A DNA stretch of 64,000 nt from a bacterium CG10_46_32 (GTDB taxonomy: Bacteria > Patescibacteriota > Patescibacteriia > UBA2169): positions 1,170 through 65,169 of the forward strand of contig MOEI01000012.1 of the NCBI GenBank assembly GCA_001889965.1. Direction: 5' to 3'. Under the pieces are notes generated by a model, which was not told where the DNA came from, did not search any database, and saw nothing but the letters and a program-made list of their open reading frames with translations. The position numbers and the translations under genes are program-made. Position 1 is the stretch's first letter. Every line of letters begins with the position of its first letter. Shown here piece by piece: positions 3,171 to 21,337 of the stretch.

Positions 3171-3347
3171 ATGCAACGACTTTCCTTATGGTGGCAGTGT
3201 CTAGCGGCTTTTGCGCTACTGCTTGCTTCCCGCACCAGCGAGACAATCCACGACATCGTGCGAACAATCGGCCCAATCGCACTCACCGCGCTTTTTATTC
3301 TCGCGGTCGCCAGCGTCATTGCCAGTCGAATCAACGACCGGCAATAG
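3171..3347 (+). CDS. possible small (58 aa) two-TM membrane protein
   Basis: Own translation gives MQRLSLWWQCLAAFALLLASRTSETIHDIVRTIGPIALTALFILAVASVIASRINDRQ. A G-rich stretch lies 4 nt upstream of the ATG and a terminator follows. It is below the 60-aa cutoff of the ORF track. Confidence 0.35.
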   Translation: MQRLSLWWQCLAAFALLLASRTSETIHDIVRTIGPIALTALFILAVASVIASRINDRQ

Positions 3348-3385
3348 AGAGGAGAAAAGTGATAGGCAGGAACATACACATACAA

Positions 3386-13629: not shown

Positions 13630-13899
13630 TTAAAGCTTTACATCAATCGCGCCCTCTGCGCCTTCCCCTATCTTGGCATCGCGAAACTCATAGTCTGCAT
13701 CGCGGAGCAAGGCGCGCACCGCATCACCTAGAACCGGGCCTTCTTTAGAATGGATACCGCGGCCCACGATAATGCGGACTAGGTTGTATCCCGCGTGTTC
13801 GCTCTCGCTTAAAAAAGCACGCACAGCAGCGCGCGCTTGATGTTGAGTGTGCTGATGCAGATCCAAAGTTGCCTGCGGTGTTTGGGCGTATTTGTTCAT
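13630..13899 (-). CDS. Smr-domain protein
   Basis: TLDLHQHTQHQARAAVRAFL...RIIVGRGIHSKEGPVLGDAV. The ATG at 13899 is preferred over the TTG at 13905. Confidence 0.8.
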   Translation of the reverse strand: MNKYAQTPQATLDLHQHTQHQARAAVRAFLSESEHAGYNLVRIIVGRGIHSKEGPVLGDAVRALLRDADYEFRDAKIGEGAEGAIDVKL

Positions 13900-14082
13900 A
13901 CCCAAACTGTACGCTTCTCATTACTAAAAATCAACACAAGTCAGCCGCTATTCCAAATTAACCCATAAACTTAGAATAGTATTCCACTTTATGCAAAGTT
14001 AGGACATAAATCTTGAATATAAAAACAACCGGATTAACCAGCTGTTTTTATACTTCTTTAAAACGTACAATAAAGACGAAAT

Positions 14083-14346
14083 TTAGCACGCGGCAAAATC
14101 GTGCAAACGCCATGTGCTCCCTTTTTTCCTTGCTTCTACAACCCTGCCTCTTTGTGGATTAATATTTTCGGCAAGAGCGCGGCTTTCCTTATTGAAAGCT
14201 TCGTCGCCTTCTACGGTAATAATAACCCATCCCTTATTTGGAATTCTATTCATCAAATCAGGCTTCCTAATAATATATCTATCAAACTCATTAGACAGTT
14301 TGATATTCTTTTTTATAAATGTTTTAGACATACTGTTACGTTGCAT
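14083..14346 (-). CDS. hypothetical protein, possible partner of the upstream gene
   Basis: 87-aa ORF with an 11-nt overlap with the upstream ORF. No motif recognised with confidence. Confidence 0.4.
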   Translation of the reverse strand: MQRNSMSKTFIKKNIKLSNEFDRYIIRKPDLMNRIPNKGWVIITVEGDEAFNKESRALAENINPQRGRVVEARKKGSTWRLHDFAAC

Positions 14347-14641
14347 ATAAATAATTTTCTTTTATTTTTTCGTAGCGCTGTGCAATATCACTCTTCATAC
14401 TGTCGAAAGCTGATTGACTATCCATATATATAGGAAATTTATATTCTTTCCCATTTTTATGATACACATGCTTATGCGGGGTTCCATACCAATTGTCTAC
14501 CCCAAGCACTGTCCTCCATCTGGATTGTATGAGGGCACGATACCGGATCGAAAATTGAACCAACTTGCCTCCCTTGGTCTCAAAGCTTATATGTAAAACA
14601 TCTATATCAGTCAAAGGATACTTATACTCTTTCTTAGGCAT
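14336..14641 (-). CDS. hypothetical protein, possibly TumE/DUF6516-like
   Basis: The central ...VLGVDNWYGTPHKHVYH... resembles, from memory, the DN..PH.H core of DUF6516/TumE proteins. This is a weak call. Confidence 0.4.
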   Translation of the reverse strand: MPKKEYKYPLTDIDVLHISFETKGGKLVQFSIRYRALIQSRWRTVLGVDNWYGTPHKHVYHKNGKEYKFPIYMDSQSAFDSMKSDIAQRYEKIKENYLYAT

Positions 14642-14679
14642 CTTACTTTATTATCTATAGTATACAACAAAAATCTATA

Positions 14680-14799
14680 TCATACAAATACGCGTTCGCT
14701 CCCACTCAAAAACGCGCGCACTGCGGCGCGCGCTTGATGTTGAGTGTGTTGGTGCAGATCCAATGTTGCCTGCGGTGTTTGCACTTGTTGGGCATACAT
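14680..14799 (-). pseudogene. duplicated 5' fragment of the smr gene (39 codons)
   Basis: MYAQQVQTPQATLDLHQHTQHQARAAVRAFLSGSERVFV* is near-identical to the first roughly 33 codons of smr (13899 downward). Confidence 0.65.
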
Positions 14800-14823
14800 T
14801 AGATGATGAGGAGAGCGGGTGAA

Positions 14824-14908: not shown

Positions 14909-15616
14909 TTATAAAAAACCGAACACTAGCATCATAATATTCAGAGCCAACAACACAAACACGATAACCCACATTGCTGCCAGAAAAAATTTATTCCAAA
15001 CCACTTTTTTTCTACGTAAAAACAAAAATATCAAATACCAAATTTCAAAAATAGATAGAGCGACAATACTGAATGCTGTTGAAAATTTTGCGATATAAAA
15101 CGAAGCGTCGTCGAACAACGCCATCATATAGCCCAGTCTTCGCGGAAACGCCAGACCGTCAAAAAGCATAATTACCGCAAATGATATAAGCAGTATCAAG
15201 GTAAGCCTCCGCCCGGAGTGACGATGTAGTTTCTGTATTCCGTTTTTAATAATTTCGCTTTTTCTTTTTTTCCTAAATTTTCTAATGACAATCGTTACAA
15301 CACAAGACAGCAGATACAAGTAGATAATCTCTATCGCCGCCATAATCCCAATCATCACACTCATCGGCCAGTCTAAATCGCCAAATACCATTTGCGGCAT
15401 GAGATAAATGAAATATGACGGAATAACTAATACCAGTCCTAGTACGCCAGCAATAAACGACGCAAAAGATACAGTGTCACAACCCAAGCTCATTATACAG
15501 CCGAACATAACCCCCATGATCAAAAAAATCGTTAGCGCGACCAAAACAACCAAAACTGCCATGACAATCAACTTCATCCGGGAAGGTTTAATAAATTTTA
15601 GTATTTTATCTTTCAT
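14909..15616 (-). CDS. polytopic membrane protein (235 aa), unknown function
   Basis: About 6 hydrophobic segments and a central basic loop RKFRKKRKSE. Confidence 0.55.
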   Translation of the reverse strand: MKDKILKFIKPSRMKLIVMAVLVVLVALTIFLIMGVMFGCIMSLGCDTVSFASFIAGVLGLVLVIPSYFIYLMPQMVFGDLDWPMSVMIGIMAAIEIIYLYLLSCVVTIVIRKFRKKRKSEIIKNGIQKLHRHSGRRLTLILLISFAVIMLFDGLAFPRRLGYMMALFDDASFYIAKFSTAFSIVALSIFEIWYLIFLFLRRKKVVWNKFFLAAMWVIVFVLLALNIMMLVFGFL

Positions 15617-15672: not shown

Positions 15673-15987
15673 CTACAGCCCTGTATAGTTGCTCCAAAGA
15701 GAGAAAACTAGCAATGAATATAAAGAGTAAATTACTAATCCCAATCCTACAAGTATGAATATAGTTGATAATATCCTATTATGCTTAACTTTATATCGAA
15801 AACCTTGAATACCGCCTACAAATAAATAAACTCCAACCAAAATAGACAGAACAACAATAACATTAATAACAACTCCATTATCAGATACAAAATTTCTATC
15901 CTGAAAAATAAAAACAATCAATCGCGGTACAATAACAAACAAAAACAGTACTAATAAAATAGTATTTCTTTTAAATAAATTTCTCAT
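15673..15987 (-). CDS. small 3-TM protein, cassette partner 3
   Basis: 104 aa with three hydrophobic helices, ending SNYTGL. It starts 13 nt after the stop of orphan C-terminal cassette 3. Confidence 0.65.
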   Translation of the reverse strand: MRNLFKRNTILLVLFLFVIVPRLIVFIFQDRNFVSDNGVVINVIVVLSILVGVYLFVGGIQGFRYKVKHNRILSTIFILVGLGLVIYSLYSLLVFSLWSNYTGL

Positions 15988-16000
15988 ATGGTTCTATTTT

Positions 16001-16321
16001 TTAATAAACAAAACTTCTTAAAATATTCCAATCCAATGTAGAGTCGGGTAATCTGCCATAAACTTTGATAAAGCTGATTATACCCCGCTGTTCTGCGGAC
16101 ATATCTCTCACAGACGGCCGCAAGCCATATGCAATCATCATAACAGATTGATCGTTTTCTGCACCTGTGCTCTTTGCCTTTTGCTCGGCCTGCGCACTGC
16201 GGCGCGCGCTTGGTGTTGAGTGTGTTGATGCAGATCCAATGTTGCCTGCGGAGTTTGGGCGTATTTGTTGAGTATCAGGAAAGCTGGTCAAAAGATGAGG
16301 ATTAAAAACCCGTAAAGCCAC
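16001..16321 (-). CDS. orphan C-terminal half-domain cassette 3 (chimeric ORF: smr 5' fragment in an alternative frame + last repeat of the CT domain)
   Basis: The C-terminal 66 aa (RSAQAEQKAKSTGAENDQSVMMIAYGLRP...YGRLPDSTLDWNILRSFVY) are homologous to the ends of 16611-17063 and 17546-21217. The 5' part is smr-derived DNA (16190-16275). Confidence 0.5.
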   Translation of the reverse strand: MALRVFNPHLLTSFPDTQQIRPNSAGNIGSASTHSTPSARRSAQAEQKAKSTGAENDQSVMMIAYGLRPSVRDMSAEQRGIISFIKVYGRLPDSTLDWNILRSFVY

Positions 16322-16592
16322 TAAAAGCGAAGTAACCTAAAATAAAATAAATGAGAATGAGTGCAGGGGGAATGATAAATACTATTGAAACTTTTTGAGC
16401 ACTGTCTTTTAGTCGTATAGAAAATTTAACATTCATATAAACAAGATATACTGCCCCTAACAGCATAAAATAAATCAATGAATTTACATGTTTATCTGGC
16501 ATGCCTGGCTGATAAAAATTCTCATAAATAAACCAAGGTGACACAAGAAATATTATTATTAAAATAATATTTTTATAAACTAGTTTTTTCAT
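16302..16592 (-). CDS. small 3-TM protein, cassette partner 2
   Basis: 96 aa with three hydrophobic helices, ending SGFTGF. It starts 18 nt after the stop of orphan cassette 2. Confidence 0.65.
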   Translation of the reverse strand: MKKLVYKNIILIIIFLVSPWFIYENFYQPGMPDKHVNSLIYFMLLGAVYLVYMNVKFSIRLKDSAQKVSIVFIIPPALILIYFILGYFAFSGFTGF

Positions 16593-16610
16593 ATTTTTTA
16601 TTATATTCTT

Positions 16611-17063
16611 TTAATAAACAAAACTTCTTAAAATATTCCAATCGAATGTAAAGCTTGGTAATCTACCATAGGTTCTAACGAAATTCACGAGTCCTTTTTG
16701 CTCCAACCCCATATCTCGCTTTAGCGGCCGCAAGCCATATGCAATCATCATAACAGATTGATCGTTTTCTGCACCTGTGCTCTTTGCCTTTTGCTCGGCC
16801 TGCGCACTGCGCTGACTTGGTAGATTGTTGGTGGAAATTTGTATCACATCACTCCAATCAACAGTGCTTGTAGGTAATCTGCCGAACGCCTCCTTAAATG
16901 AGTACAATACTCCAGCGCGCTCGCCTTGTCCTAAAGCCTGCGTACTCTTGGTGCCATAGGCAATAAACGCTATTGCTCCCCGATCAAACGAGAGCCCTTT
17001 ACCATAACGCTCTGCTACTGCTTGCTCTAAAGCGCTGTCCCTCGCTCTATCTAAATACGCCAT
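16611..17063 (-). CDS. orphan C-terminal domain cassette 2 (5'-truncated copy of the large protein's C-terminal tandem-repeat domain)
   Basis: The 150 aa align with the last roughly 150 aa of the 1237-aa ORF. Homology (EDEILSALANADIETF) continues about 16 codons upstream of the first ATG in a frame that has no start codon. Confidence 0.6.
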   Translation of the reverse strand: MAYLDRARDSALEQAVAERYGKGLSFDRGAIAFIAYGTKSTQALGQGERAGVLYSFKEAFGRLPTSTVDWSDVIQISTNNLPSQRSAQAEQKAKSTGAENDQSVMMIAYGLRPLKRDMGLEQKGLVNFVRTYGRLPSFTFDWNILRSFVY

Positions 17064-17155
17064 GAATGTTTCGATATCTGCATTGGCAAGCGCGGATAAA
17101 ATTTCATCTTCTCTATGGATGCTTGCTGAATACGGGTTAAACGACGTAAATGGAA

Positions 17156-17230
17156 TTAGAAATCAGTAAAACCACTAAAAGCGAAGTATCCTAAAATAAA
17201 ATAAATGAGAATTAACACAGTAGGAATAAT
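17156..17230 (-). pseudogene. remnant 3' end of a cassette-partner-2-like small TM gene
   Basis: It encodes ..IPTVLILIYFILGYFAFSGFTDF* and is roughly 85% identical by eye to 16302-16380. Confidence 0.45.
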
Positions 17231-17236
17231 GTTGAA

Positions 17237-17533
17237 TTAGAGACCAGTAAAATTACTCAAAGCATAAATCATAACTAAAGCGTAAAGTGCGTACAACACC
17301 AACCCAAGACCCATAATAAAAAAAATAATTCGGCTCGTATTGCTCTCGAAATCAAAACGCTTTGCATTGATACGTACTAAATAAATTCCCGCCACCAGAA
17401 CAATAATAATCAAACCATATATAATTTTACTCCTAAGTTGAAAATCAAATATTCCAAATATGTACTTGTTAGCTAGATAAAGTACCACAACGAATAAGAC
17501 CGCGATTAAATTTTTATGTATCTTTTTTATCAT
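17237..17533 (-). CDS. small 3-TM protein, cassette partner 1
   Basis: 98 aa with three hydrophobic helices, ending SNFTGL. It starts 12 nt after the stop of the large protein. Confidence 0.65.
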   Translation of the reverse strand: MIKKIHKNLIAVLFVVVLYLANKYIFGIFDFQLRSKIIYGLIIIVLVAGIYLVRINAKRFDFESNTSRIIFFIMGLGLVLYALYALVMIYALSNFTGL

Positions 17534-17545
17534 AATCCAACTTAC

Positions 17546-20500
17546 TTAATAAACAAAACTTCTTAAAATATTCCAATCCAACGTAGAACATGGGAGCTTG
17601 CCGTAGATCTCAATAAATCGCTCTATCCCTTGTCGCTCGGCATCTAGATCCCGCTTATCCGGCCGCAGACCGTAGGCAACCGTTATAATAGATTTCTCAT
17701 CATTCATACCCACATCTTTTGCTTTTCGCTCGGCGGCACCGCTTCGCTGAATTGGCGCTTGGTTGGTTGCAATTCGAATCACGTCATTCCAGTCTTCGCT
17801 TGTTGTGGGGAGGATGCCAAATGCCGCTTTATAGGAATACAGTACTCCGGCGCGCTCTCCGGTTCCAAGTTTTTGCGTGCTCTTGGTGCCATATGTGATA
17901 AAGTTGATGCCTGCCTGGTTCAAGCGAAGTGATCGGCCGTATTTTTGAGCTGTTTCCTGCTCCGAAAAAAAATTCCGTTCCAAACTAAGATAATCCAATA
18001 ACGTTTCAATATCACCATCGTGGAGAGCAGCCAGAATATCATCTTGCGTATACTGCTCGCTCTGTGCACGCTCTATTTTTACGCCAAGCACTTCCGGAGT
18101 TGAGGCAGATCCTGAATCAAGTCCAGGATGACGATTTGGCTCTTGAGTATTCTCATCTTGCGATTTGCCGGCAGGCGCGGCAGGTGTCGGCACAATAATG
18201 ACAGCCGGAGAATAAACATTGATCGTTTGAGTGTGGTAATCTTCCAGATTCCCTACTCTGTCCTTTGACCGGTACAGTACTGTATTATCGCCTATAGTGG
18301 TAAGTATAACCTGATTTTCGTAAGCGTGCCACGTGCTCCCGTTATCAAGACTATATTCTGTTTTTAAAACTCCAGAATTATCATCACTTGCCAAAAGCTC
18401 AAACGCGGCGGAAGACGCTCCACCAGAAACACTGATAGTAGTGGTTGGTTTTGTTATGTCCCCAGCCTGTGTACTGTTGAGGACCGCTGCCGCAGTAACC
18501 GGCGCAAAACTTCCCGTACCATTCGTATCCACCTGTAACGTGGTTCCACTAACGTCCGATGACAACGCTACCTGTGCACTGGTTGATTGATTCACTGGAA
18601 CATCAGTGTAATACGCAGTTTCGATGACCTGGTTGTTCACAACCTTGGAAACATACAGGCTGAATGTACCACTTCCGGTGCCGTCATGTTGAATATTGTA
18701 AGATGTAGAATCCGTGTTCGGTATAAAGATAAATTTATTATCTCCAATCTGCTCATAGGTTGCGCCTGGGATATTCAATTCAATATCTCCATTTTCGTCT
18801 GGACCGACATGGTTGCCGTTTGCATCATACACGTTTAAATTGACCGGACTGTGCACAGATACGACCTGACCGTTGAATACACACTGGCTGATGTCTTGAG
18901 AAATATCCGGCAATGACGAAGTGTCTAGCGTGCCGGTGATGATCTCTGTAATTAACTGCTTAATACTTGACTGGCTCGGCATGGTTGCGTGTTCAACGCC
19001 AATTGCATAAAATGTTTTGTTTGCCTGTATATCAATAGCAGTCGCGCTATCCAACGGAACTGTTCCGTCGCCTGCTACAAACTCAACACCATATTCTACT
19101 TTAACAAGTTCCTGGTTCCGGATGATAATTTTGCCGAGAGTTGCAGTGTCGCACCCCACAATATTATAGGCATCCATTCCAGTAGTATTAAAATCGTCCA
19201 AAGCATTGCTATGAAGATCATCTGCGCTCTGAACAAGAGAAAAGTTTAAGCCCTGGTTGACCAGATAATTATTTACCTCGTCATAAGTGTGGCTTTTTGG
19301 AATAGCTAGATTATAAAAGTATTTTCCGATTTCAGATATATATAGACTACTAGGCAACAACTGGTAAACTGACGCCATATTCTTTGTGATGCTTTTTATT
19401 TCAAGTTGGTTCATTATTAGACCCATACCCAAATTATCACCATACAGTAATACCTTTGCTGATTTAGGTGACCCTAAATGTGGCGTACCGACAAAGATCA
19501 TTTTATTAACTCTCGACGAAGAATTATCAAGAATATATTGTTTCAAAACTAGACCACCCATACTATGGGCGACAATATCGACTTTCTGACTACCCGTCTG
19601 TTGTATAACACTATCAATCTTATCGACTAAAAATTGACTTATTGATTGAATATTCAAACGCCAATCATAAGGGAATAAAAATAAATCAGTATTCTCCTGA
19701 TACCCAGCAGACTCAAAATCATTAATCAAACCATCCAAGTAATCAAAAATAGTACCACCAAAAATTGATGCTTTCCTAAAAATATCATCAACATAAACAG
19801 AATTATCGCTTGGAGACCCATCTTCATTCATAGACAAAGGATCCATATAGGATTCGGCGACCGAAATTGCCGTCCAAAGAAAATTTGGCCATAAAGTAAT
19901 ATCTCCTAAACCACCAAAAACTTCCTGCTTCAAAATCGTCCCGGCTATCCCCGGCACCAGAATAACAGGTACATTACGCACCTCAAACATTAACTCCCCA
20001 GACGATGGCAAGCGGACAGCAGACAACCCATCCGAAGTCTCAAAGTGGTAGGAATAGGAACCCTTAGGGAACACGCCGGCATTTGGAGTAAACTCAAACA
20101 GGCCATTGGACGACGTTGCCATAGGATACGCGCTATTGCCAACCACCAAGCGAACATACTGCGCAGAATCGCCATCAGAATCAGTAAATAAAATGCGGAA
20201 CACCGGAACATCCTGCCCTACAAAACTAATATCAGGCGATGCGCCATCAGCAGTATACCCATCCAAATCTTGGTACGATAAAACCGGCGCTTGGTTGGCG
20301 GGATCTTGGTTTGTCCAGGGGCTATAGGTTACATTCCCCACAATCACATCCCCGGTTCCAGAAGGATTGGACGCAATGGTCGGGCCGGAAGAACTGCCCC
20401 ACCAATTGTTCGTCATATCCAACGGGTCGTCGCCGGAGTAGAAAACCGCACTTTCTGAATTATCGTAAAAACTGGAACCTACAATAGACACGTGCGCTGG

Positions 20501-21217
20501 CACTACCGCGCCGCCGACGGCCAGCATGCCAATTTTATTGCCATAGAACAGCGTATCAACTACCGTCGTAAATGCGTCATTCTGTAATCGAAAGCCGGTT
20601 TGGGCGTTATCCCGAACCACAGAGTCCGCGATTGAAATAGTACTGCCAGTTGTGATGTTTTTGATACCCTCCCACACACTCTGTTCAATCACTGAGTGGT
20701 TCAGCGTAACTTCGCCGCCGGTTACCAACAGCATGGGCCAATTTGACTTGCCTCCATACCGGATAATGACATACTCTGCGTCCAACCTACCACTGACTGA
20801 CATCCGAAACCAATCCCCAGGAGAAGGCAGGGTCTCATTGCCGTCACTATTAGTATCTCCGCCGTACTCGTCGTCTTTTATGGAAGTGAACACCACTGGA
20901 GCAGATTCAATTCCGGCAATAATGAGCGTGCCGTCAATAAAAATCTGGAACTGCAATCCGGTCGGCATCTTGATAACTACCCCGGGTTCAATAGTAACCG
21001 TTGTATTAGCTGCCACTTTGATGGTTGTTGTCTGCGCGATATAGGGGCTGTTTGCGGCAGTGAGCGTGTATCCGTCTGGAAACGTATTATTCGGAAACGC
21101 AAGCGTGGTAGCTGCATGCGCGGGCGCAACCCACGCCAACGCGCACACAAAAAACACAGCAACAAAAATAATACTGTGCTGGATTGGTTTGATGATGTCT
21201 ATACTATGTCCCTCCAT
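17546..21217 (-). CDS. large secreted multidomain protein: signal peptide, right-handed beta-helix, LCAT/PGAP1-like alpha/beta-hydrolase (lipase), Ig-like domains, C-terminal tandem-repeat domain
   Basis: The signal peptide IIFVAVFFVCALAWVAPAHA follows the ATG at 21217. Beta-helix-type repeats follow. Lipase motifs are VILVPGIAGT, FPYDWRL and IVAHSMGG (GxSxG). An OmpL47-like segment (DDNSGVLKTEYSLDNGSTW) follows. The C-terminus has two repeats of about 45 aa with YG..ER.G....F...[FY]G.LP....DW. Confidence 0.85.
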   Translation of the reverse strand: MEGHSIDIIKPIQHSIIFVAVFFVCALAWVAPAHAATTLAFPNNTFPDGYTLTAANSPYIAQTTTIKVAANTTVTIEPGVVIKMPTGLQFQIFIDGTLIIAGIESAPVVFTSIKDDEYGGDTNSDGNETLPSPGDWFRMSVSGRLDAEYVIIRYGGKSNWPMLLVTGGEVTLNHSVIEQSVWEGIKNITTGSTISIADSVVRDNAQTGFRLQNDAFTTVVDTLFYGNKIGMLAVGGAVVPAHVSIVGSSFYDNSESAVFYSGDDPLDMTNNWWGSSSGPTIASNPSGTGDVIVGNVTYSPWTNQDPANQAPVLSYQDLDGYTADGASPDISFVGQDVPVFRILFTDSDGDSAQYVRLVVGNSAYPMATSSNGLFEFTPNAGVFPKGSYSYHFETSDGLSAVRLPSSGELMFEVRNVPVILVPGIAGTILKQEVFGGLGDITLWPNFLWTAISVAESYMDPLSMNEDGSPSDNSVYVDDIFRKASIFGGTIFDYLDGLINDFESAGYQENTDLFLFPYDWRLNIQSISQFLVDKIDSVIQQTGSQKVDIVAHSMGGLVLKQYILDNSSSRVNKMIFVGTPHLGSPKSAKVLLYGDNLGMGLIMNQLEIKSITKNMASVYQLLPSSLYISEIGKYFYNLAIPKSHTYDEVNNYLVNQGLNFSLVQSADDLHSNALDDFNTTGMDAYNIVGCDTATLGKIIIRNQELVKVEYGVEFVAGDGTVPLDSATAIDIQANKTFYAIGVEHATMPSQSSIKQLITEIITGTLDTSSLPDISQDISQCVFNGQVVSVHSPVNLNVYDANGNHVGPDENGDIELNIPGATYEQIGDNKFIFIPNTDSTSYNIQHDGTGSGTFSLYVSKVVNNQVIETAYYTDVPVNQSTSAQVALSSDVSGTTLQVDTNGTGSFAPVTAAAVLNSTQAGDITKPTTTISVSGGASSAAFELLASDDNSGVLKTEYSLDNGSTWHAYENQVILTTIGDNTVLYRSKDRVGNLEDYHTQTINVYSPAVIIVPTPAAPAGKSQDENTQEPNRHPGLDSGSASTPEVLGVKIERAQSEQYTQDDILAALHDGDIETLLDYLSLERNFFSEQETAQKYGRSLRLNQAGINFITYGTKSTQKLGTGERAGVLYSYKAAFGILPTTSEDWNDVIRIATNQAPIQRSGAAERKAKDVGMNDEKSIITVAYGLRPDKRDLDAERQGIERFIEIYGKLPCSTLDWNILRSFVY

Positions 21218-21251
21218 AATATAGTTACTGTACGCCCATGCTCCTAAAAAA

Positions 21252-21294
21252 TCAAACAAAAAAACACCCCCGGCCGTTATGTGACGACCGGGGG
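21252..21294 (-). terminator. intrinsic terminator of the 21338-22150 gene
   Basis: On the minus strand: cccccggtcg-tcacataa-cggccggggg followed by tgtttttttgttt. Confidence 0.65.
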
Positions 21295-21337
21295 ATAAAA
21301 GTCATCGAGACCTTTCCTCCTTGTTGTGCGCTATGCA

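Follow-up and report, generated by a model that had tools for sequence, protein, structure and literature searches.

Introduction

Polymorphic toxin loci of the contact-dependent growth inhibition (CDI) and Rhs types reportedly hold orphan modules, cdiA-CT/cdiI and rhs-CT/rhsI, downstream of the full gene. The locus described here lies in 64,000 nucleotides (nt) of DNA from CG10_46_32, a groundwater bacterium of the Patescibacteria (assembly GCA_001889965.1, contig MOEI01000012.1), a stretch that we call the window and whose coordinates are used throughout, and in its overall architecture it most resembles those orphan modules. Behind the complete gene for a secreted lipase two 5′-truncated copies of the 3′ end of this gene are stacked, so that the array consists of one complete gene end and two truncated ones, each followed 12-18 nt on by a different gene for a small protein with three transmembrane helices (3-TM). 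We refer to the three gene ends as cassette 1 (in the lipase gene), cassette 2 and cassette 3. The likeness to the CDI and Rhs loci extends to a retained conserved stretch that permits homologous recombination and to displacement by new 3′ ends as the proposed origin of the orphans. Unlike in those loci, the repeated 3′ end encodes a widespread helical domain of non-toxin type with a variable part of 27 residues and does not co-vary with the downstream gene; there is no type 5, 6 or 7 (T5, T6, T7) secretion context, the lipase carrying a Sec signal peptide.

For naturally transformable bacteria a homology-facilitated illegitimate recombination has reportedly been described, in which a homologous anchor on one side and a short microhomology on the other allow foreign DNA to be inserted. 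The same combination is found here, the microhomology being 10 nt long, GC-rich and palindromic. In contrast to that process, the event is here read from scars alone, part of the anchor is duplicated and no recipient DNA is deleted.

Silent-cassette antigenic variation is known from pilE/pilS of Neisseria, MgPar of Mycoplasma genitalium and vlsE of Borrelia. These systems share with the present locus promoterless partial copies, conserved flanks around variable segments and mosaic identity, and differ from it in that here there are two copies, scar junctions, an expression site invariant in five assemblies and an intact, unrelated TM gene for each copy.

SLH, CWB2 and GW repeats are C-terminal envelope-anchoring modules of Gram-positive exoproteins. 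Like these, the domain encoded by the cassettes is built from repeats and forms the very C-terminal end of many extracellular enzymes and adhesins that are unrelated to one another, several per genome; unlike them it has no match to their sequences or folds, and its binding to the envelope is a guess. The immunity proteins of pore-forming colicins (E1/Ia type) have about 110 amino acids (aa) and three TM helices, and in size and topology the small proteins encoded right after the C-terminal helical domain are like them. The two differ in that the domain lacks the hydrophobic helical hairpin, that there is no homology and that domain and small protein do not co-vary.

Mosaic identity of the three gene ends

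All features of the array are on the minus strand. Those on which the argument rests are the following.

17546..21259, minus strand: expressed lipase gene, an open reading frame (ORF) of 1237 aa (Pfam LCAT, E = 1e-24; Beta_helix)
about 18061-17546, minus strand: cassette 1, the two-repeat C-terminal domain of the lipase gene, ~170 aa
17546..17578, minus strand: 33-nt tail of cassette 1 with the codons for DWNILRSFVY and stop; last helix, H8
17237..17533, minus strand: TM1, 98 aa, 3-TM, family B; start 12 nt past the stop of cassette 1
16611..17127, minus strand: orphan cassette 2, a 5′-truncated copy of the domain with both repeats, ~172 codons
16725..16811, minus strand: 87-nt block, copy of cassette 2, RSAQAEQKAKSTGAENDQSVMMIAYGLRP; inter-repeat linker and helices H5-H6
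16644..16724, minus strand: variable core of cassette 2, LKRDMGLEQKGLVNFVRTYGRLPSFTF; helix H7 and flanking loops
16611..16643, minus strand: 33-nt tail of cassette 2
16302..16592, minus strand: TM2, 96 aa, 3-TM, family A
16192..16269, minus strand: stray 5′ piece of an Smr gene behind TM2, out-of-frame codons 2 to ~27
16192..16201, minus strand: junction microhomology CGCAGTGCGC, 10 nt, part of a GC-rich palindrome
16001..16201, minus strand: orphan cassette 3, second repeat only, ~67 codons
16115-16201, 16034-16114 and 16001-16033, minus strand: block, core and tail of cassette 3
15673..15987, minus strand: TM3, 104 aa, 3-TM, family B
13630..13905, minus strand: intact Smr-domain gene, right-hand anchor of the hotspot proposed below

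The three homologous coding segments each close with AYGLRP, 27 variable residues, DWNILRSFVY and a stop codon. An exact 33-mer occurs three times in the window, at 16001-16033, 16611-16643 and 17546-17578 (zero expected by chance), just as the original prediction, made from the bare sequence, had claimed. Cassettes 2 and 3 share in addition the 87 nt of the block (16115-16201 and 16725-16811) without a single mismatch on realignment; a pattern search gave 86 nt of this identity, and both the alignment in register and an overlap of contig flanks described below gave 87. Between these identical flanks the two cores agree at only 44 of 81 positions (~54%), which bears out the strong divergence reported for these roughly 80 nt, and the core peptides quoted in the prediction are correct translations. 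Block, core and tail of cassettes 2 and 3 are thus identical at 87/87, 44/81 and 33/33 positions overall and at 29/29, 11/27 and 11/11 third codon positions, respectively.

The hand alignment behind the prediction would have been wrong had divergence proved uniform. It is not: the maximum chi-square breakpoint falls at nt 87, exactly after the AYGLRP codons (permutation p = 1e-4), and the run of 87 identical nucleotides has p = 1e-5. In the block 33 sites have the pattern cassette 2 = cassette 3 ≠ cassette 1 and all other patterns have none (the block of cassette 1 is 62-66% identical to those of the orphans), while the core patterns are star-like (15/14/15), the three copies being equidistant. 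The differences in the core involve all four bases with no adenine specificity. Upstream of 16201 the homology of cassette 3 to the lipase gene ends, so that this edge of the block is a truncation junction and not a mosaic breakpoint. Since neither uniform divergence nor selection alone explains this mosaic, recombination was involved, and the mosaic is a genuine recombination scar.

The 87-nt block and its illegitimate junction

Between genomes the block is the least conserved segment of the domain (median nucleotide identity 49%; 85% to the nearest relative, locus L015), yet the copies in cassettes 2 and 3 are identical at all 29 third positions, so that their identity must stem from a recent event. 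At its upstream edge cassette 3 is joined to the stray Smr piece at CGCAGTGCGC, which is common to the Smr piece and to the start of the block. CGCAGTGCGC lies within the GC-rich palindrome GCGCGCGCCGCAGTGCGCGC, and the perfectly homologous 87 nt adjoin it; a join at a few nucleotides of microhomology, bordered by extended homology, is the mark of illegitimate recombination that is homology-facilitated or mediated by microhomology. The 87-nt identity stems from a recent duplication or conversion next to an illegitimate junction, so that for the block the recent recombination or gene conversion that had been predicted holds.

The stray Smr piece (16192-16269) is about 89-91% identical to the resident gene (13630-13905), from which it differs at ~7 of 78 positions, and it differs from a second stray fragment (see below) at ~3 of 66. 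Because of its difference from the resident Smr gene, the 610-nt unit of which it is part is taken to have come from another strain and not to be a simple internal duplication. The palindrome GCGCGCGCCGCAGTGCGCGC is present at 14714-14733 and at 16191-16208, where it belongs to the 5′ coding part of Smr-type sequence in AT-rich surroundings. As it resembles a terminator at the first site and coincides with the illegitimate junction of cassette 3 at the second, DNA breaks or template switching may be frequent at this palindrome.

Independent assemblies

The original prediction had itself named assembly collapse as a possible source of the identical blocks. Contigs from ENA ERZ27293400, assembled with MEGAHIT at k=141, a k that exceeds both repeat lengths, and from JGI 3300025142 agree with the window at 100% identity for 7.9 kb. 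MEGAHIT k=141 and JGI contigs, together from at least five samples, run through the entire array at 100% identity, and several further assemblies cover it. The match of the k=141 and multi-sample contigs to the window shows that the array did not arise by assembly collapse. At its 3′ end the expressed lipase gene is 100% invariant in five assemblies from different samples (loci L110-L114). The NCBI-sourced protein names are 'bacterium CG10_46_32', and for close homologues 'Patescibacteria group bacterium'.

Two contigs of other samples, L108 (JGI 3300025034) and L109 (ENA ERZ17912254), have a different order, namely the first repeat of cassette 2, block, core 3, tail and TM3. The hybrid product of L109 has 150 aa (P0229, recorded on two short contigs). 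The flanks in these contigs overlap by exactly 87 nt, from which it follows that the 610-nt unit is lacking there. If real, the two contigs would represent either the state before insertion or a deletion between direct repeats, and the block would then be an active substrate of recombination.

Some contigs end inside the repeats (L103 at 16174, L104 at 16028, L112 at 16752). In L003 (ENA ERZ27293362, 1008 nt) an inverted cassette 2 (17263-16594) is joined to 17313-17661 at an 11-nt A/T-rich inverted microhomology, probably a chimeric artefact. In both ERZ27293414 and JGI 3300025850 one contig stops at 16979 and another begins at 16981, which hints at a strain-level branch point or a polymorphism in the first repeat of cassette 2.

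The 33-nt tail

The identity of the three tails has to be read differently. Between genomes the tail has a median identity of 85%, often 97-100%, and a single nucleotide sets the tail of the window apart from the tails in L008, L015 and L017, the adjoining core being only about 50-60% identical. Its codon usage departs from that of the gene body: arginine is encoded by AGA in 14 of 14 cases in tails versus 27 of 143 in the gene body, leucine by TTA in 14 of 15 versus 29 of 135, and the GC content at third codon positions is 0.12 versus 0.40. Judged from these sequences, the conservation of the tail is at the level of DNA and subfamily-wide. The identity of the three tails in the window is therefore weak evidence for recent conversion, and in this part the predicted recency is poorly supported, although all three carry a TTT codon for phenylalanine that was not seen in other genomes.

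In the subfamily loci the TM gene starts 12-21 nt downstream of the tail. Minimal orphans of relatives (L006/L020 and L019) consist of the last 17-19 codons only, before a TM gene. Since even these keep the tail, it should be needed in cis by the TM gene, or be a preferred crossover site, or both; a role in cis could be that of an AT-rich initiation region or of a promoter, for example. In a sigma-70 promoter scan the number of sites did not exceed expectation and the tails had no site, so that reading the tail as a promoter of the form TTGGAA-N19-TATTAA is speculative. The tail forms no inverted-repeat structure, and its copies are all direct.

The C-terminal domain

The 1237-aa protein consists of a Sec-type signal peptide (read from the sequence), a beta-helix, an LCAT/PGAP1-like lipase domain and Ig-like regions, followed by the C-terminal domain. 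No meaningful match was found for this domain or for the TM proteins in Pfam, NCBIfam, PADLOC and PHROGs. A profile built from seven close relatives and scored against 1.84 billion representative proteins matched 1251 representative clusters, 1002 of them with E ≤ 1e-10, and for nearly all of the best 150 of these the aligned stretch stopped 0-6 residues short of the end of the protein. The proteins that carry the domain range from about 100 to 3500 aa; among those sampled, the partner domains were LCAT lipase, subtilase, Ig-like, cohesin and CarboxypepD_reg-like. The genome matches were overwhelmingly to metagenome-assembled genomes of Patescibacteria, often with several per genome.

The domain of ~150 aa at the extreme C-terminus is built from repeats of 55-75 residues and has the motifs YGTxST..GERAGV...P....W and AYGLRP..R...E......F.....P....W..R...Y. 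An AlphaFold2 model (predicted local distance difference test score 93.5) has eight helices, onto which the block maps as the inter-repeat linker with H5-H6, the core as H7 with its loops and the tail as H8. Generic members end in DWDxVRAIAYSGATR and vary at the same positions of H7. The domain matched no known toxin family or fold, its model contains no hydrophobic helical hairpin, and no relation in sequence or fold to SLH, CWB2 or GW repeats was found. The original prediction had called this part a 'CT' with a variable core; with more than 1000 clusters of diverse exoproteins carrying it, it is no variable module of the toxin type but a conserved two-repeat helical C-terminal module of Patescibacteria exoproteins, and the 'variable core' is the least constrained helix of this module. 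Attachment to the envelope is the most economical guess as to what the domain may do.

In L007/L014 (292-1420) the N-terminal beta-helix part is fused, frame-shifted, almost directly to the C-terminal domain and the lipase region is absent; possibly this is a deletion derivative of the large gene.

The small membrane proteins

Comparison of 80 genome loci showed that a 3-TM ORF of 95-123 aa is present in 6 of the 6 loci closest to the query (45-60% identity), where it starts -10 to +26 nt from the stop codon, and in 0 of the remaining 74. In all six close loci and in most generic loci the C-terminal domain is encoded to the very end of the protein, and metagenome loci, found by the 33-nt pattern or by protein look-up, have the same pairing of domain and 3-TM protein. 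The 3-TM proteins belong to at least four poorly related families, of which A includes TM2 and B includes TM1 and TM3.

In the original prediction the core and the TM gene behind it are swapped as one unit. A set of 15 cassettes, drawn from 12 loci, did not bear this out, core and TM identities being uncorrelated (Spearman rho = -0.05; Mantel r = -0.09, p = 0.77). Thus, L005a and L019a have cores 89% identical and TM proteins 18% identical, L006a and L022 have 89% and 26%, and L004 and L019 have, conversely, 37% and 73%. This lack of correlation contradicts both a joint exchange of core and TM gene and a cognate pairing of toxin and immunity protein.

Nor do the core and the part of the domain upstream of it stay together: L006 and L022 are 55% identical in the block and 86% in the core, cassettes 2 and 3 of the window 100% and 54%. 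In the two copies of L005 the first repeat is near-identical, divergence follows, and the tail and the intergenic spacer are near-identical again. Together these patterns indicate that mosaicism, with boundaries at the tail and close to AYGLRP, characterizes the subfamily as a whole. The idea that the conserved flanks serve as handles for recombination thus survives in so far as the AYGLRP boundary and the tail recur as module boundaries across genomes; it fails in so far as the two flanks are not equivalent.

The TM genes are intact and co-oriented, like all genes of the array, with gaps between successive ORFs of at most 173 nt. For this reason they are probably the selected cargo and the orphan domain fragments by-products. 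The 3-TM proteins could protect the cell against its own lipase or could dock the C-terminal domain.

Proposed serial displacement and capture

We consider it probable, with a good deal of room for doubt, that the interval between the lipase and Smr genes is a hotspot of serial 3′-end displacement and cassette capture by homologous plus microhomology-mediated recombination. Incoming DNA would repeatedly have replaced or extended the lipase 3′ end together with its downstream small TM gene, and the earlier 3′ ends would have been pushed downstream as promoterless, 5′-truncated orphans. The original 3′ end (first repeat, block, core 3 and tail) with TM3 would have been displaced by the far more divergent cassette 1 with TM1. 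The 610-nt unit (core 2, tail, TM2 and Smr 5′ piece) would then have been captured into the already silent orphan from a related strain in which, we infer, TM2 stood directly before Smr. Capture would have come about by homologous pairing in the block at one end and a microhomology join at the other, whereby the block was duplicated, either in a homology-facilitated illegitimate recombination or in the single-crossover integration of a circularised fragment. That the identity stops downstream at the diverged core would simply mean that homology ends there. The tail is the boundary at which domain core and TM gene reassort independently. Alternatively, the identity of the block may have arisen by short-tract gene conversion between the copies.

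Orphans of variable length are also found in relatives, such as one with repeat 2 only in L017 and a 160-aa one in L004/L005. Further 3′ remnants of TM genes and tail-only remnants of the domain were seen in L076 (5347-5487) and on the reverse strand of L019 (about 3270-3349), which shows that loci of this kind often carry such scars.

Several points weigh against serial displacement and capture as set out here. A donor haplotype with TM2 directly followed by intact Smr was absent, the TM2-carrying contigs all having the arrangement of the window, and comparison of the lipase gene with relatives showed no breakpoint for the left crossover of the cassette 1 replacement, the nearest relatives having at most 70% DNA identity over long stretches of the gene body. 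Later gene conversion would leave the same pattern as a duplication made by insertion. The contigs L108 and L109 are both short, with a coverage of about 2x for L109 (from the contig name), and each may be a path that an assembler took through the 87-nt repeat; if real, they could be deletion derivatives instead of ancestors. The conservation of the tail could be due to a signal for expression of the TM gene or could itself be the result of frequent recombination. Finally, the role of the TM genes as selected cargo is one that we infer.

Alternative explanations

The rivals differ mainly in what they make of the orphans and the TM genes. In a polymorphic toxin-immunity locus of the CDI/Rhs kind the core would be the toxin or specificity determinant, and the 3-TM proteins its cognate immunity proteins retained after displacement. 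The arrangement is that of such a locus, with a large secreted protein, a small gene 12-21 nt on and 5′-truncated orphans each with a small gene (also in L004-L006, L017 and L019), the 3-TM neighbour is specific for the subfamily (6/6 versus 0/74 loci), the protein has a lipase domain, and toxins that act on membranes, pore-forming colicins for example, are known to have small immunity proteins with three TM helices. We nevertheless regard this as rather unlikely, the domain being conserved on more than 1000 clusters of subtilases, Ig-like and cohesin proteins and lipases and being without a match in Pfam, NCBIfam or PADLOC; the C-termini are not non-homologous, as they are variable in 27 residues within one fold, in which generic members vary too, and core and TM gene do not co-vary as a toxin and its immunity protein would. 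Immunity against the lipase itself instead of the core is a possible variant. Programmed segmental gene conversion in the manner of pilE/pilS, in which silent orphan cores are copied into the lipase gene and vary an exposed surface of the domain, would account for orphans that lack a promoter, are incomplete and have a variable helix between conserved flanks, for the recurrence of the AYGLRP boundary and the tail between genomes, and for a hybrid between two silent copies that may exist in the population (L108/L109). There are only two cassettes, however, the block of cassette 1, with 62-66% identity to those of the orphans, would serve conversion poorly, the 3′ end of the expressed gene does not vary among five assemblies and the only possible hybrid joins two silent copies; the orphans are unequal in length and have scars typical of accidental displacement, and the intact, unrelated TM gene behind each of them is left unexplained. 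We hold such a system for unlikely, even more so than toxin-immunity pairs.

Other explanations dispense with the orphans as functional units. Purifying selection on AYGLRP and DWNILRSFVY around a less constrained helix, without any recent recombination, is largely adequate for the 33-nt tail, which is 97% identical to tails of other genomes and whose residues W142 and Y150 are invariant in the wider family, R146 nearly so. It does not predict the uniformity of the tail at the codon level and is refuted for the block by its median identity of 49% between genomes and by 29/29 identical third positions beside a saturated core with 11/27, so that as a full account it is very improbable. Hardly any weight can be given to a collapsed or chimeric assembly of strain variants, to which the contig breaks in the repeats (L103, L104, L112), the inverted chimera L003 and the alternative path of L108/L109 might point, in view of the MEGAHIT k=141 and JGI contigs from at least five samples that span the array at 100% identity. 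An integron- or shufflon-like system with the 33-nt tail as its site, or a diversity-generating retroelement with the core as its target, would fit a conserved 33-nt element under DNA-level constraint at every cassette boundary. No integrase, recombinase or reverse transcriptase is present among the genes within ~±10 kb, though, the tail lacks inverted repeats and its copies are direct, the core differences affect all four bases rather than adenine, and the junctions are heterogeneous and based on microhomology. The lack of a nearby recombinase or reverse transcriptase and of adenine specificity largely excludes the mechanisms of integrons, shufflons and diversity-generating retroelements, to which we give next to no credence.

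There is, lastly, a further reading that we regard as rather unlikely, namely that the tail and the AYGLRP-coding boundary are built-in junctions of a recombinase-independent modular cassette system, whose modules (domain body, H7 core and 3-TM gene) would be shuffled and accumulated behind the lipase gene, with the 3-TM proteins as new polymorphic self-protection or docking partners of the lipase.

Other features of the locus

The remaining features of the array and its surroundings are these.

17157..17236, minus strand: first TM-gene scar, last 26 codons of a family-A TM gene, IIPTVLILIYFILGYFAFSGFTDF and stop; repeat family D5
14909..15616, minus strand: TM4, 235 aa, ~six TM helices
14827..14889, minus strand: second TM-gene scar, 3′ end of a family-A TM gene, YFIESYSVFSGFTKF and stop; repeat family D3
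14714..14821, minus strand: second stray Smr 5′ copy, a 39-codon ORF that ends in the hairpin GCGCGCGCCGCAGTGCGCGC and a T-run
14083-14641: DUF7718/DUF5647 gene pair between the array and the intact Smr gene

The first scar (80 nt) directly adjoins the stop codon of TM1 and has 84% DNA identity to the 3′ end of TM2. Cassette 2 becomes homologous to the expressed gene at 17127, which aligns with 18061; the ORF was called from an ATG at 17063, and a signal peptide is absent. In the Komeilibacteria locus L024 a homologue of TM4 stands in the same position after a 3-TM gene. The hairpin at 14733-14714 is the sole strong terminator-like hairpin on the minus strand outside an intact gene.

The DUF7718/DUF5647 pair (window 14083-14821) sits between the stray Smr 5′ fragment and intact Smr. 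Since it is flanked by both, its insertion also duplicated ~100 nt of the Smr 5′ end.

A scan with Rfam gave no family in the array. Just upstream of the lipase gene (21259-21310) there is an NsiR1 match below threshold (27.4 bits versus a gathering score of 39), probably due to chance, and a weak tblastn match of the domain at 40.8 kb is antisense to a real gene and noise. The wider region is rich in genes of the toxin-antitoxin type (Phd/ParE, PemK), as is typical of a variable island.

The cassette arrays of relatives hold a restriction enzyme of the MvaI/BcnI type as well as a methyltransferase with a fused LexA/S24 peptidase domain. The positions of this restriction-modification system are as follows.

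L004, 7311-9886
L005, 1269-3844
L006, 858-3421

In L004 an orphan domain fragment and a TM gene lie beside the system and no lipase gene is nearby, an arrangement which suggests that orphan, TM gene and restriction-modification system move together.

Implications

A search of the literature found no description of this domain or of this type of locus. As far as found, three things are undescribed, namely the family to which the domain belongs, the membrane partners specific to its subfamily and the fact that the gene end is conserved at the DNA level; the mechanism itself is ordinary recombination. Nothing found shows that the scar in the array is the work of a toxin-swapping device.

The Patescibacteria are mostly uncultivated episymbionts, whose surface and secreted proteins are thought to mediate contact with the host cell. 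The proposed history of the array would mean that their exoprotein genes undergo 3′-end displacement and cassette stockpiling as polymorphic toxin loci do, the repeated 3′ end being here a widespread, unnamed C-terminal domain with no solved structural relative. The locus would at the same time provide a concrete, datable example of the microhomology-mediated capture of foreign DNA in a candidate-phyla genome. The partnership of the domain with highly polymorphic 3-TM proteins, which is specific to the subfamily, may bear on self-protection from the secreted lipase or on its anchoring, and, should the modular cassette system be true after all, the locus would be a new kind of effector-partner locus in episymbiotic bacteria.

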